From the NCBI GenBank assembly GCA_944372795.1, contig CALWAF010000002.1, forward strand, positions 72,558 to 136,557: DNA of 64,000 nt, written 5' to 3'. The stretch is from an uncultured Clostridia bacterium. Its GTDB lineage: Bacteria > Bacillota > Clostridia > Christensenellales > CAG-917. The translations under genes were made by a program, and so were the position numbers. A model generated the notes under the pieces. The model worked only from the letters and a program-made list of their open reading frames with translations. It had not been told where the DNA came from and searched no databases. Positions 7,142 through 48,522 of this stretch are shown here, one piece after another (positions within the stretch are counted from its first letter, which is position 1; each line of letters opens with the position of its first letter).

Positions 7142-7765
7142 GCGAAGCAAGACGCTTTCGCCTTTTCCTACGGCTTATAAAAGGCACAAAGTCTGCTGAA
7201 ACGTTATACCTATTCGGCGTCATGACCTTATGGCGAACATCCCTCCGCCATTGCATGAGTCGGAGGGATTCTTACCCGTGGCTGACGCGAGTTGTTCGGT
7301 GACGATTTTCCTCCCCGCACGACACTCGTTGATCAACGGCACCACGACGAAAATCCCACACATCTTCCTTTTCCCCTCACATCCTCGCTATTCCGTCGCG
7401 CTTCGCGCTCCTTACGAATCCCTCCATACTATGCGAAGCAAGACGCTTTCGCCCTTATGCCCCACAAAGTGTCCTCACTTTCTCCCCGCGGAAAATTATT
7501 TGCATGGACCTCACGTTGCGGTACTTTGCGGGGACCCCGATTTTAGCGAACATCCCTCCGCCATTGCATGAGTCGGAGGTATCCTTACCCGTGGCTGACG
7601 CGATTTGTTCGGCGGCGCGCACGGCGCGACGCTTTCGCCCTATGCCCCACAAAGTGTCCTCACTTTCTCCCCGCGGAAAATTATTTCGCATGGACCTCAC
7701 GTTGCGGTACTTTGCGGGGACCCCGATTTTAGCGAACATCCCTCCGCCATTGCATGAGTCGGAAG
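7142..7765. repeat. Tandem or dispersed intergenic repeat array (about 186-bp unit)
   Basis: Units at 7442-7627 and 7628-7765 are near-identical over 138 bp, differing by two single-nt indels. A partial 72-bp module sits at 7233-7304. The head motif GCGAAGCAAGACGCTTTCGCC occurs at 7142-7162 and 7433-7453. Each copy carries a CCCTCCG-N13-CGGAGGG hairpin. Confidence 0.85.
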
Positions 7766-44039: not shown

Positions 44040-45017
44040 TTGGGAGTGAAACTTCCTCACCTCAAAAAGGCGCTCCCGGTGCTTGCGGTCGGCGCGTTCA
44101 TGATAATGCTGGTGGCAAAGCCTGACTATTTTCTGGACTCTGCCTCGCGCGGGCTGCTGCTCTTTGCCTCATCCGTGCTGCCCACGGTGTTCCCCTTTTT
44201 CTTCTGCTCGACACTGCTTACGGCTATGGGAGCGGCGTCATCCCTCTCGCGCATGGGAGCAAAACCCGTACGCGCCATGTTCAACGCTCCGCCTTCCGGC
44301 GCATACGTGCTCGCGCTTTCCCTTCTCGGCGGCTATCCCGTCGGCGCCGCCACCGTCGCCGACCTGTACGCAAAAGGCATCGTGAACGAGACGGACGCGA
44401 AACGCATCGCTTCATTCACATCGACATCGGGGCCCATATTCGTACTGGGCACCGTAGGCTCCGCCATCTTCGGAGATCCCGCCGTCGGCGCCCTCATCCT
44501 CGCCGCCCACTACGCCGCAGCCGTCACCACGGGGTTGGTGTTCAGAGGACGGAAAAAGAGCGCCGACATCTCCCCCGTCTTCCTCGCGGGGTGCGACACC
44601 GATTCCGCCCTTTCAAACAGCATATCCTCCTCCACGCTCGCCATGCTCGCCGTAGGCGGCTATGTGGTGGTGGGCAATATGCTCATCGACGCGCTCTCCC
44701 TCTCGGGGCTCAACGCTCTCATCACACGCATCCCCGACGCCAACGCGGCGCACACTCTCAACGCCCTTCTCGCGGGTGCGGTGGAAATGACGCGCGGCAC
44801 AATTCTGTCGAGCGAAATCCCCTTCTCTCCACTTGCGGTCGCATGCGCGTGCGCAGTGGTATCCTTCGGCGGACTATCCGTCATGTTGCAAAGTTACACT
44901 TTCCTTTCGCGCTGCAAGATGAGTTTTACTGCCCTCGCCGCTCGCAAATGCGTGCAGTGTACAGCCGCATTTATATACGCCTTTATATTTTCACTCATTT
45001 TTTTCACCAATTTATGA
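44040..45017 (+). CDS. ylbJ: YlbJ-like sporulation integral membrane protein (nucleoside-recognition/Gate domain)
   Basis: 325-aa polytopic ORF. PDYFLDSASRGLLLFASSVLPTVFPFFF resembles the YlbJ N-terminus. The start codon is uncertain. Confidence 0.55.
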   Translation: MGVKLPHLKKALPVLAVGAFMIMLVAKPDYFLDSASRGLLLFASSVLPTVFPFFFCSTLLTAMGAASSLSRMGAKPVRAMFNAPPSGAYVLALSLLGGYPVGAATVADLYAKGIVNETDAKRIASFTSTSGPIFVLGTVGSAIFGDPAVGALILAAHYAAAVTTGLVFRGRKKSADISPVFLAGCDTDSALSNSISSSTLAMLAVGGYVVVGNMLIDALSLSGLNALITRIPDANAAHTLNALLAGAVEMTRGTILSSEIPFSPLAVACACAVVSFGGLSVMLQSYTFLSRCKMSFTALAARKCVQCTAAFIYAFIFSLIFFTNL

Positions 45018-45098
45018 CATAATTTGTTGACTATCGGGCTTTGAGGTCAATATCCTTTCCGTATCGGGCATTTTGCCCAGAACTCTCGGAGGAAAATT

Positions 45099-45593
45099 AT
45101 GACCGAAAACCGATGCAACACTGTGCTTGTTGCTTATTCTGCTTTGCCAAAAATTCTGAAAGACCACGATCTAGCCTTCAAAACCCGCCTGAACAGCAGC
45201 TTTATGAGCCGACATTTGCGCGCCGGCGTCTCCACGGAAGCGCTTGTTACGGAAATGCTGCAAATTAATGAGCGAAAAGCCGCCGCTCTCACCCTTGCGG
45301 ACATCGTGCGCACCGCACTCACCACCCTTCCCGCACCCCTTTCCGAAGCCCTCGTACTGCGCTTCGTGAAAGGCAAAACTTTTCAGGAGATAGCCCTAAA
45401 ACAAAACGTCACCCTGCGCACTGCGTTCAGACGCTTCGATCGCGCCCGTGAACTCTTCACCGCAGCGCTCGACAAGCTGGGACTCACCGAACGAGTCTTT
45501 GCGGACACCTATCTCACCGATCCCGCCATAGCAGCCGCGGTCTCCCGCCTCGACGACGGCGCCTACTTCACCGCAAAAAGCCAAAACGTTTGA
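45099..45593 (+). CDS. Sigma-70 region-4-type HTH protein (164 aa)
   Basis: A strong GGAGGA SD is present. LSEALVLRFVKGKTFQEIALKQNVTLRTAFRRFDRARE looks like sigma-70 region 4. No region 2 is recognisable. Confidence 0.5.
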   Translation: MTENRCNTVLVAYSALPKILKDHDLAFKTRLNSSFMSRHLRAGVSTEALVTEMLQINERKAAALTLADIVRTALTTLPAPLSEALVLRFVKGKTFQEIALKQNVTLRTAFRRFDRARELFTAALDKLGLTERVFADTYLTDPAIAAAVSRLDDGAYFTAKSQNV

Positions 45594-45659
45594 CGAGAGA
45601 AAGTATTTGCACTTACTGTGGGTTTCGTCGGGTTCGAAGGCAGAACGTGTGCACGTACC

Positions 45660-45731
45660 CTGACATGGGAGTATTGTTCCCCCACCTTCCCTTCGGGATA
45701 AAGTGCTATCCTCTGACATTGGAGTATTGTT
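45660..45731 (+). repeat. Direct repeat pair CTGACATKGGAGTATTGTT (53-bp period)
   Basis: Copies at 45660-45678 and 45713-45731 match at 18 of 19 positions. Each is followed by a C-rich tract ending in a small hairpin. Confidence 0.8.
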
Positions 45732-45751
45732 TACCCCCTTCCTGCGGGTTT

Positions 45752-45797
45752 CCCCCGAAATCGTTCCCCCTTAAAAGGGGACCCACCATTTCGGGGG
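45752..45797 (+). other. Nested hairpin with a perfect 10-bp outer stem
   Basis: CCCCCGAAAT (45752-45761) pairs with ATTTCGGGGG (45788-45797). The stem encloses CCCC-TTAAAA-GGGG. Confidence 0.75.
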
Positions 45798-46169
45798 ACA
45801 CCTTCGGCACTCGGGCACGAGGGCGTCCGAGGACGGCGCCTCCACGGCGCCGCCATGTTATGCCGCTTGCAATGCGCCCGCTTCGCGAAGAGAGTGGCGC
45901 ATTGCCGGCGCACTTCACGTCAGCCCTCGGCACTCATACGGTCGCCGCGGCGCTCAAGAGGGCTTCGCCCTGTGAGCGCTTGGTGAGCGGCTCCACTCCG
46001 AACTAGATAACGTTGTGTCAAGCGACGTCACGTTCGGGGGTTTTGTTAGACCGTCTCCGAAAGAGAAACATCGTGCTCAAAGACGCTCTGTCAAGCTGTC
46101 CGTCGTATTCAAGCACGCTCCGAATAAGTGTTCGTCTCAAGCGAATCCCGCCCGCCAGCACACGCTATG

Positions 46170-46216
46170 GCGGCGCCCGCGAGAGAGGATTCTCTCGCGG
46201 GCGCCGCACTTTTATT
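46170..46216 (+). terminator. Very strong plus-strand intrinsic terminator with no ORF upstream
   Basis: A perfect 17-bp stem (46170-46186 with 46191-46207) has the loop GGAT and is followed by ACTTTTATT. Confidence 0.75.
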
Positions 46217-46315
46217 GTCCGTCTCTTTACCTCCCCTCTTTTTGTCAAGGAACAGCGCCGAAAAATTTTTGGGTTTCACTCAACAAATTTTTCGCGCCCT
46301 TGACAACGACGACAA

Positions 46316-46355
46316 GTTAAAATCAAAACACGCGCGGAGCGGTCGCCCGCTCCGC
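46316..46355 (-). terminator. Possible terminator of the ABC exporter operon
   Basis: The 9-bp stem GCGGAGCGG/CCGCTCCGC (46334-46355) is followed on the minus strand by CGCGTGTTTTGATTTT. Confidence 0.45.
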
Positions 46356-46593
46356 GCCTTAATTGCTACATGCCCCGCCGAACACTGTTCGGCGGACTAT
46401 CTTCCCCGCCGAAACTTCGGCGGGGCACCGTTTACGTTTTTATTAAAGCCGTTCCTCACAATAGTGCCCGAACGAGTGACGGCGATATTTCGATGAAGTG
46501 CGCGAAAGAGCCACTGCCGAGAGGCGGAGCGTACATTAGTACGTGAGCATCTACGGCAGTGGCTCTGACAAAGCAATTCGCGAAATAGCGCCG

Positions 46594-48522
46594 TCACTCC
46601 AACTCGAAGGCGCCGGTATAAAGCTGATAATACCTCCCCCTCTGCGCGAGAAGTTCGTCGTGATTGCCGCGTTCGATAATCTCGCCGTGTTCGAGGACGA
46701 GGATGACGTCGGCGTTGCGGACGGTGGAGAGGCGGTGGGCGATGATGAACACCGTCCTGCCGTGCATGAGGCTGTCCATACCCTTTTCGATGAGCTTTTC
46801 GGTGCGGGTGTCGATGGAGGAGGTCGCCTCGTCGAGGATGAGGACGGGGGGATCGGCAACGGCTGCCCTAGCGATGGAAAGCAGCTGACGCTGTCCCTGC
46901 GAGAGGTTGGCGCCGTCACCCGACAGCATGGTGTCGTAGCCCTGCGGCAGGTGACGGATGAAAGCGTCGGCATTGGCGAGCTTTGCCGCCTTTTCCACTT
47001 CCTCGTCGGTGGCATTCAGGTTGCCGTAGCGGATGTTGTCGCGCACCGTGCCCGTGAAGAGGTGGGTGTCCTGCAACACCATGCCGAGAGAACGGCGCAG
47101 GTCGGGCTTTTTGATCTTCTGTATGTTGATGTTGTCGTAGCGGATCTTGCCCTCGTCAACGTCGTAGAACCGGTTGATGAGATTGGTGATGGTGGTCTTG
47201 CCCGCACCCGTAGAGCCGACGAGCGCGATCTTCTGCCCGGGCTTTGCGACGAGGCTGACGTCGTGGAGCACCGTCTTTTCGGGCACATAGCCGAAGGTGA
47301 CGTCCTCGAACTCCACCTCCCCCGTCCACTTGACGTAGGTGGTGGAATCGGTGGCTTTGTGATAGTGTTTCCACGCCCACTCGCCCGTGCGGGTATCGCT
47401 CTCGGTGATGTTGCCCTGCTCGTCCTCGCGCGCGTTCACGAGGGTGACGTAACCCTCGTCCTTCTCGGGCTCGGAGTCTATGAGCGCAAATATGCGTTCG
47501 GCGCCCGCCAGCGCCATGAGGATGCTGTTCATCTGCTGGGACATCTGCCCTATGGGCGCGCTGAACTGTCGGGAGAATTGCAGGAAGGCGATGAGGCTGC
47601 CCAGCCCCATTATGCCGCCCACACGGATGTCCGCCGCGATGAAGAGCGCGCCTACTATGGCGGTGATGGCGTAATTGATGTAGCCGATGTTGCCGAGGAT
47701 GGGCATGAGGACGTTGGCGTAGGTGTGCGCCTTGCGGGACGCGCCGCGCAGCTTGGCGTTGATGCCGTCGAACGCCTCCTTCTCGGCGTCCTCATGGCAG
47801 AACACCTTGACGACGCGCATACCCTCGATGTGTTCCTCGACATAGCCGTCCAGCACGCCGATCGCCTTCTGCTGACGCACGAAGTGCTTGCCCGACTTGC
47901 CGCCGACGTACTTCACGATGAAGAACATGATGACGAGCATCACCACTATGAAGAGGGTGAGCAGCCAATTGATGATCATCATCGCGACGAATATGGCGAG
48001 CACCGTGAGCCCGTTGGAGATGAGATAGGGCACGCCGTTTGCCATGAGCTCGCGCAGGGTGTCGGTGTCGTTGGTGTAGCAGCTCATTATATCGCCGTTG
48101 GCGTGGGTGTCGAAGAAGCGCACGGGGAGCTTCTGCATACTCTCGAACATCTGATCGCGGATGTTGCGCTGGATCTTGGTGGTCATGTTGACGATGATCC
48201 AGTTGTAGGCGTAGTGCAGCAGCACGCCGATGAGATAAAGGGACGCCATGACGCCCGTCATCATCGCGAAATCGCCCATCGTCACGGCGGATGAGCCGGA
48301 CGCGAGAGGTCCGATGTAGTCGTCGATGATCACGGAGAGCATGAAGGTGCCGCCCACCGTAGCCGCGACGTTGAGCACGAGGGAGATCCCCGCAAGGATG
48401 ACCCTGCCCTTGTAAGGTTTGAAATAGGAGAGGATGCGCTTGAACGTCGCCATGGGATGACCCACCGCGAATTTGCCCGCACCTGCGGAAAGGATGCCTT
48501 CCTTCTTTTTCCTGCGGCTCAT
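46594..48522 (-). CDS. ABC transporter ATP-binding/permease protein (type I exporter half-transporter)
   Basis: 642-aa ORF. An N-terminal 6-TM domain is followed by the Walker A GSTGAGKTT, the signature LSQGQRQLL and the Walker B LILDEATSS. The start overlaps the upstream gene in an ATGA arrangement. Confidence 0.93.
   Translation of the reverse strand: MSRRKKKEGILSAGAGKFAVGHPMATFKRILSYFKPYKGRVILAGISLVLNVAATVGGTFMLSVIIDDYIGPLASGSSAVTMGDFAMMTGVMASLYLIGVLLHYAYNWIIVNMTTKIQRNIRDQMFESMQKLPVRFFDTHANGDIMSCYTNDTDTLRELMANGVPYLISNGLTVLAIFVAMMIINWLLTLFIVVMLVIMFFIVKYVGGKSGKHFVRQQKAIGVLDGYVEEHIEGMRVVKVFCHEDAEKEAFDGINAKLRGASRKAHTYANVLMPILGNIGYINYAITAIVGALFIAADIRVGGIMGLGSLIAFLQFSRQFSAPIGQMSQQMNSILMALAGAERIFALIDSEPEKDEGYVTLVNAREDEQGNITESDTRTGEWAWKHYHKATDSTTYVKWTGEVEFEDVTFGYVPEKTVLHDVSLVAKPGQKIALVGSTGAGKTTITNLINRFYDVDEGKIRYDNINIQKIKKPDLRRSLGMVLQDTHLFTGTVRDNIRYGNLNATDEEVEKAAKLANADAFIRHLPQGYDTMLSGDGANLSQGQRQLLSIARAAVADPPVLILDEATSSIDTRTEKLIEKGMDSLMHGRTVFIIAHRLSTVRNADVILVLEHGEIIERGNHDELLAQRGRYYQLYTGAFELE

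Follow-up and report, generated by a model that had tools for sequence, protein, structure and literature searches.

The BOX repeats of Streptococcus pneumoniae (together with RUP and SPRITE) are modular, folded repeats of a Firmicute that are often found 3' of genes and whose mobilising enzyme is unknown. Correia elements of Neisseria and bcr1 of the Bacillus cereus group belong to the type of miniature inverted-repeat transposable elements (MITEs); they are free of open reading frames (ORFs), possess terminal inverted repeats (TIRs) and in some cases supply terminators or stop codons. In Enterobacteria and Pseudomonas systems are described that comprise repetitive extragenic palindromes (REPs), bacterial interspersed mosaic elements (BIMEs) or REP doublets forming hairpins (REPINs) and the REP-associated tyrosine transposase (RAYT, also TnpA_REP); for comparison we used PMC3116915, PMC5581495 and PMC6006769 as well as the structure PDB 4ER8. 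Here, we analyse an ORF-free gap of 1000 nt (positions 45594-46593) within a stretch of 64,000 nt, called the window in the following, from the genome of an uncultured Clostridia bacterium (assembly GCA_944372795.1, contig CALWAF010000002.1). A first-pass annotation had taken the narrower interval 45600-46216 as a candidate for a large structured non-coding RNA (ncRNA). The region is very probably a pile-up of dispersed, non-autonomous, non-coding and hairpin-forming repeat modules and not an RNA gene. This confidence covers the classification as a dispersed mosaic repeat cluster only and does not extend to the mobilising enzyme. The modules belong to a mosaic repeat system that is common to this genus of uncultured gut Clostridia.

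The classification is founded on the abundance of the sequence. In a BLAST search against its own genome (G000, 1.6 Mb in 52 contigs that carry C-numbers here, congeners being G001 and so on) the gap gives 114 matches, and nearly all of it (45612-46599) consists of modules that recur at about 100 loci and are arranged here as T, A, B, U, E, followed by C and D (Table 1). Copy depth amounts to 20-60 over 45640-46090 and to 10-27 over 46270-46590, with 37-60 other copies covering positions 45644-45697 of module T. The genome contains 79 matches of the A type (64 of them at 80% of the length or more) and 38 of module D. Modules T and A both contain CTGACATGGGAGTATTG..CCCCC, A2 is always located immediately 5' of B, and a comparison of the right flanks of all B copies revealed unit U as a frequent 3' neighbour, matches to positions 1-61 of module R following B at many loci. 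R itself has a length of about 330 nt and occurs in 39 near-full copies, none of them in this gap. The module map of G000 (kinds T, A, B, U, R, H, C, D, E, P and Y) comprises 130 clusters, and 233 repeat islands add up to 82 kb. Bases with at least five other copies account for 5.0% of the genome and for about 22% of the predicted intergenic DNA, i.e., of the DNA outside rough gene calls, where 86% of the repeat bases are situated. The modules combine in many ways and in both orientations, and many contigs end inside them. At five loci (on C47, C4, C8, C11 and C34) they form A-B-R-A' composites of about 800 nt without ORFs, in which R links A-B to an inverted T sequence that closes the element, so that the termini are long and inverted.

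The repeats are not restricted to one species. For the genus 15 genomes were compared (G000 and 14 congeners, all of them draft metagenome bins), and the gap sequence finds matches in all 14 others. Copies of the B core are present in 11 of these 14 and in human-gut metagenome contigs, which contribute further variants. Near-full B occurs in G002, G003, G005, G007, G008 and G010 and a diverged form in G001; in G006, G011 and G012 the hairpin P1 of the B core is found alone (about 55-90 nt), multi-copy in G012 and with one or two matches each in G006 and G011. Beyond the genus, two further genera of the family have P1 alone (in 3 of 12 and 7 of 25 genomes), several of these genomes with multiple copies. 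Collections of phages and plasmids gave no match to the gap repeats, and IMG/VR none to the B-core pattern.

At the locus itself turnover is apparent. An identical sigma-like protein is encoded on nine contigs from other samples, all with the same T-A-B sequence downstream and all ending inside it, 85-480 nt 3' of the gene. On the 3' side of the orthologous gene G007 has D units only and G013 has a different mosaic together with a different convergent gene, a module C of 92% identity being found at the orthologous place. Two spacers of G002 have flanks that are 78-91% identical to those of G013, in which they are 530-580 nt shorter and lack the T-A-B cluster; one of them contains a plain hairpin instead. 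No target-site duplication was seen in the flanks that were read, where the ends abut other repeats and leave no clean empty site.

Several smaller units accompany the modules of the gap. The hairpin H (GGGCTCCCCGCAAAATCGCCGCAGGCAATTTTGTGGGGTCCCC) has 47 nt and 20 copies of 96-100% identity (e.g., C47:896-942 and C39:7416-7460), always at one junction, namely between the end of R and an inverted A. Resembling hairpins of 36-40 nt interrupt B at fixed points in G000 and in human-gut contigs, and all these H-type hairpins look like nested insertions without a duplicated target. The small palindromes at 46371-46427 follow the same hairpin design as H. The commonest 16-mers in G000 are CCAAATGAGAGCGTCA (64 copies) and CCCGCATTTTAGGAGG (52 copies), which derive from the heads of D-like palindromes and from module R; in the latter, TAGGAGGA faces outward at a distance of about 60 nt from the inverted end.

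Compared with the described systems the closest likeness is to REP/BIME/REPIN and to BOX, with inverted ends as in MITEs, but the mosaic fails at least one defining feature of each. As in REP/BIME, palindromic non-coding units of high copy number are mostly intergenic, form mosaics of varying composition and orientation and keep their pairing while the sequence changes, and there is one vertically inherited, syntenic and palindrome-flanked Y1 (HUH) gene whose product is nearer to TnpA_REP than to IS200. The sizes are different: REPs have 20-40 bp and a REPIN about 100 bp, whereas B has about 290 nt, R about 330 nt and the composites about 800 nt, and only the H-type hairpins (36-47 nt) fall into the REP range. 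Moreover, the RAYT-like gene has flanking repeats other than the abundant modules, the repeats reside in a Gram-positive anaerobe, and the RAYT-like protein has a C-terminal helix-turn-helix (HTH) extension of about 110 aa. According to PMC3733652 one end of each REP unit bears a conserved tag, GTAG or CGTC, that stays unpaired; in our repeats neither GTAG (0.5-fold) nor CGTC (0.8-fold) is enriched, while CGTCCCC is (4.5-fold) and heads both T/A and Y.

With BOX the system shares separate units that combine in variable number and order, strong folding and a frequent position just 3' of genes. There is no sequence relation to BOX, and the modules here are longer, of more kinds and much denser (about 5% of a 1.6-Mb genome). 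The repeat families appear to be undescribed, being neither in Rfam nor in the literature that was searched, although repeats of the REP, BIME, BOX and MITE kind are already known. A dense mosaic repeat system is thus documented in a little-studied genus of uncultured gut Clostridia, which could serve as a Gram-positive model for studying the spread of REP-type repeats and the reasons for the conservation of their hairpins. Metagenome assemblies also break at such repeats, and ordinary genes obtain terminators and even stop codons from them.

The modules, each of which consists of one hairpin or several bundled ones, multiply and reshuffle as DNA. As mechanism we prefer a copying via hairpins of single-stranded DNA, for which the host would provide a HUH tyrosine transposase in trans, with recombination at shared junction motifs giving rise to the mosaics. 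The candidate enzyme is a RAYT-like Y1 protein of 257 aa (C22:18738-19511), encoded by a single-copy gene that is the sole transposase-like gene and the only Y1_Tnp match of G000; the domain is found in 9 of the 15 genomes. The protein reaches 73.7 bits against the NCBIfam model REP_Tyr_transpos (NF047646, cut-off 80) and 20 bits against IS200. A PDB search with the single sequence found nothing, whereas the profile search gave E. coli TnpA_REP (4ER8, E=2.9e-10) as the best solved relative. The HUH motif and the catalytic tyrosine are invariant. In at least seven species the gene is syntenic, beside the same acyl-CoA-synthetase-like gene, and its cassette (C22:18380-19680 in G000) has direct copies of an A/T-rich nested palindrome Y of about 105 nt (TTGAACAA.TGGGGACGGGCTT.TTTTGTTCA...) on both sides. 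In G002, G007, G005 and G006 the cassette is inverted relative to G000 and G008. A single-copy, syntenic and palindrome-flanked Y1 gene shows the hallmarks of a domesticated RAYT (PMC5581495), and the gene is present in all seven genomes that have B copies of at least 200 nt at 79% identity or more. The repeats coexist with a single domesticated RAYT-like transposase and no detectable classical insertion sequence (IS). Inverted R modules enclose the RAYT-like gene in G010; a master element was considered there and rejected, since the gene occupies the syntenic position that it has in other species, and the enclosing modules are consequently read as later insertions.

A number of points weigh against this account. 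Y is rare (about 8 loci, its flank 16-mers occurring 5-8 times) compared with the abundant modules at 45-64, and a BLAST comparison of Y with T, A, B and R gave no similarity, the only shared part being CGTCCCC...ATTGTTC, read by eye. G001 has diverged B copies and no detected Y1 gene, and as the genomes are kin the co-occurrence of RAYT and B across the 15 genomes lacks phylogenetic independence. When class-2 Y1 proteins carry a C-terminal extension, they often have no association with REPs (PMC6006769). Presence or absence was seen for whole clusters only (G002 versus G013, with no alignable junction), and no clean insertion of a single element with defined ends was found. The absences of other transposases may be artefacts, multi-copy IS perhaps being unassembled in the draft bins, and the local role as 3' untranslated region (UTR) and terminator considered below is read from sequence patterns only. 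Because the link between the RAYT-like protein and the abundant modules is weak, we regard a spreading of the modules by this enzyme as a tentative proposal, conceivable but doubtful.

Classical MITEs would be a different source of the same repeats. The T-A-B-R-T' composites and their fragments would then be internally deleted IS of the DDE type that were moved via TIRs of about 40-60 nt, the inverted T ends, by a transposase that is unassembled, lost or encoded on another replicon. Such elements are ORF-free, have 0.1-0.8 kb, terminal inverted repeats and many near-identical copies, and the composites with their long inverted ends and a length below 1 kb agree with this; the identity of 88-98% between copies suggests recent bursts, and as many contigs break in repeats, the bin could lack an IS. 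However, neither DDE_Tnp_1 (PF01609) nor rve (PF00665) was found in any of the 15 genus genomes, which are drafts so that absence is no proof, though several of them have only 8-30 contigs. Five further families (Transposase_mut, IS110, ISL3, DDE_3 and IS1595) were not found in G000, and RVT_1 is present in 2 of the 15 genomes but not in G000. The missing target-site duplications at the junctions read, the many combinations and orientations in place of one element with fixed boundaries, and the lack of any match to the exact T-end pattern among JGI metagenome contigs likewise do not fit MITEs. We consider a DDE transposase acting on the T ends unlikely, and the remaining probability falls to other means of mobilisation. 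Palindrome-associated transposable elements of the IS200/IS605 type with TnpB or IscB and their guide (omega) RNA are no match, as TnpB (PF07282) was detected in none of the 15 genomes and the window has no Rfam match to HEARO or IS605-orfB.

The same DNA is densely structured. The plus strand folds at -269 kcal/mol (z = -6.1) and the minus strand at -282.8 kcal/mol (z = -18.7), and in either case none of 20 dinucleotide shuffles reached the value. The dense local structure noticed in the first-pass annotation is in this respect borne out, and all sequence features that it listed were recovered where it had placed them. They include the direct repeat CTGACAT.GGAGTATTGTT at 45660 and 45713 (24 nt, 88% identical), the nested hairpin with arms 45747-45764 and 45785-45802 (perfect over 10 bp at 45752-45761 and 45788-45797), GGCGCC-N5-GGCGCC at 45835/45846, the 10-bp stem GCAATGCGCC / GGCGCATTGC at 45869/45896 and four TCAAGC motifs at 46018, 46091, 46109 and 46137.

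For a covariation test 27 B copies from six species were aligned, which gave a consensus of 57 pairs in 10 helices with 98.6% of the cells paired. Both sides are changed in 12 pairs, compared with 5.2 +/- 1.3 in shuffles (0 of 500 reached this number) and at most 2 with slid partners. P1 occurs in at least five versions of its outer stem, every one of them self-complementary, and the last hairpin of B, which G008 and G001 lack, is found within one genome in two versions with swapped stems. The alignment thus indicates that pairing in the B core is kept by selection, since one self-complementary stem gives way to another. Subfamilies share these changes over entire stems, and independent compensatory events are therefore few. 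In all 27 copies the reverse strand folds better (consensus -88 versus -73 kcal/mol), and therefore no RNA strand is indicated. The earlier suggestion of a structure under selection holds for the B core of about 290 nt and its compensatory changes, but not for a single RNA gene.

A B core that is more than selfish filler, i.e., a mobile nucleic-acid fold under selection, with several helices (one of them long-range) and invariant linkers, that acts as single-stranded DNA or RNA, seems to us a rather improbable extension of these data. It could serve the RAYT-like enzyme as a substrate or cofactor in the manner of an outsized REPIN or be a dispersed cis-acting RNA, with stems that would be renewed by cassette-like swapping. 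Equally remote is the case of a functional, multi-copy structured RNA that B forms by itself or together with its neighbours, under selection at the RNA level, either a 3' UTR stabiliser or terminator in cis or a copied small regulatory RNA. The compensatory changes in H1, H4, H5 and H7 (one of them long-range), linkers that are invariant across six species (e.g., CCTTCGGC, ATGCC.CTTGC and GTCGCCGC) and the folding z-scores would agree with such a function, as would the sense position of B in this window, 3' of a gene and 5' of a terminator. According to PMC3733652 REP, BOX and ERIC (enterobacterial repetitive intergenic consensus) repeats can act in mRNA. What speaks against it, besides the better folding of the opposite strand, is the position of 19 sizeable B copies with respect to the nearest incoming gene (8 sense, 6 antisense and 5 without an incoming gene); for the repeats no rule of orientation relative to neighbouring genes and no bias relative to the gene-strand majority were found, while their relation to GC skew is confounded by their own richness in C and by short contigs. 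Furthermore, B is not one unit, considering the solitary multi-copy P1 of other species and genera and the loss of the last hairpin in two genomes, no promoter-like site is present 5' of B, and no Rfam family was matched.

The original proposal, a single orphan ncRNA gene of about 0.6 kb that ends at 46216 like OLE, GOLLD or ROOL, is very improbable, in spite of the dense structure, the lack of an ORF and the strong 3' terminator. Large orphan ncRNAs (OLE, GOLLD, HEARO, ROOL and raiA) share with the locus a covariation-supported structure, here confined to the B core, but they have one or a few copies per genome in a conserved context and on a defined strand, whereas the copies here number in the dozens, occur in every context and in either orientation, and fold on both strands. 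The interval is a chain of independently repeated modules without a fixed relation to transcription units, and it is not conserved at the orthologous locus, where the spacers of sister species hold other mosaics or none. Module E, with which the RNA would end, has a single other full copy (C45:8333-8442) and is absent from the G013 ortholog. Rfam gave no hit at gathering score for the window, nothing relevant at E<=10 in 44900-46800 (best E 0.04-0.07, from unrelated microRNA and small-RNA models) and, for a complete composite, nothing relevant at E<=1. A spurious candidate for a novel large ncRNA is thereby removed, the overall interpretation given initially is partly supported, and the mobile-element relic that it had named as alternative turns out to be essentially right. 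A decayed pseudogene, its other alternative, can practically be dismissed: long R/P/G-rich frames are open in the gap (e.g., 45590-46006 with 138 aa), but none of its six ORFs has a Pfam match at E<=1, and the same non-coding DNA is found in dozens of intergenic places, where the copies differ by 1-nt indels and their variation tracks base-pairing and not codons.

Table 1. Coordinates of repeat modules, helices and adjacent genes in the window
Feature	Position	Strand	Description
Sigma-like gene	45099-45593	+	ORF; 164 aa; Pfam Sigma70_r4_2, E=7e-9
Module T	45612-45697	+	terminal, TIR-like; holds first copy of CTGACATGGGAGTATTGTTCCCCC (A1, core 45649-45697)
Module A2	45709-45752	+	second copy of TIR-like motif, head of B element; direct repeat D1
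Module B	45753-46046	+	structured core, ~290 nt; 16 copies at >=80% length and 88-98% identity in the same genome
Helices H1/H2	45746-45803	+	nested hairpin P1; H1 covarying
Helix H3	45804-45807 with 45998-46001	+	long-range; B consensus
Helix H4	45813-45816 with 45923-45926	+	long-range; covarying
Helix H5	45834-45852	+	covarying
Helices H7/H8	45869-45905	+	H7 covarying
Helix H10	45944-45991	+	B consensus
Junction unit U	46047-46103	+	..CCGTCTCCGAAAGAG..CGTGCTC..; inverted copy of module R start
Module E	46104-46239	+	short TCAAGC/CCGAATAAG units, then predicted intrinsic terminator (stem 46170-46207, T tract to 46216)
Module C	46240-46366		with minus-strand terminator-like hairpin (46357-46332, then GTGTTTTGAT); 9 full copies
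Small palindromes	46371-46427		CCCCGCCGAA...TTCGGCGGGG; inverted repeats I11, I18, I19
Module D	46474-46599		126-nt nested palindrome; inverted repeats I2 (19 nt, 95%) and I9 (13 nt, 100%)
ABC-transporter ATPase/permease gene	46594-48522	-	ORF; convergent with sigma-like gene

Between the two convergent genes the modules may have a local role. The sigma-like protein consists of a sigma-70 region-4 domain only and lacks region 2; in congeners its gene also adjoins a ylbJ-like gene, with a nucleotide identity of about 70%. The terminator in module E was confirmed as a perfect stem of 17 pairs (14 of them G-C) with a 4-nt loop and the tail ACTTTTATTG, and this G+C-rich hairpin directly followed by a T tract resembles a Rho-independent terminator by its sequence. 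Whereas it had been described as having no gene to terminate, read-through from the sigma-like gene is available as its target. The terminator scan found no plus-strand pattern between this gene and 46170, so the sigma-like transcript should run through T-A-B-U and stop at the E hairpin. T-A-B-U is therefore probably a structured 3' UTR of about 0.6 kb of the sigma-like gene, ended by the predicted E terminator. From the opposite side, the hairpin in module C and the palindrome D would end the convergent ABC-transporter transcript. The outer arm of D holds the TGA stop of this gene (46596-46594, minus strand), and several further D copies are situated no more than about 8 nt from the end of a gene.

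The ABC-transporter pair is paralogous to a pair on C45 (71% identity), and the repeats behind both are related, too. A block of 366 nt (46126-46490), which includes the small palindromes, recurs there at 91% identity although the genes are only 71% identical; the second full copy of module E is likewise found 3' of that pair. As this non-coding block is far more alike than the genes, its sequence suggests gene conversion or separate acquisition, and its recurrence behind the second pair means that the two-way terminator block is itself a repeat. In C45:7912-8442 as in 46126-46599 of the window, both pairs have the D palindrome first and then the 366-nt block.

Besides the gap, 7233-7763 is the sole other repeat island region of the window; its families differ from those studied here, and its islands measure about 175 nt (C2:79805-79979) and 32 nt (C2:80103-80134). 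A small serine recombinase (C23:16842-17117, in an open frame of 213 aa) is encoded about 400 nt from the repeat cluster C23:17534-18049, which is probably a coincidence, given one cluster per about 12 kb.

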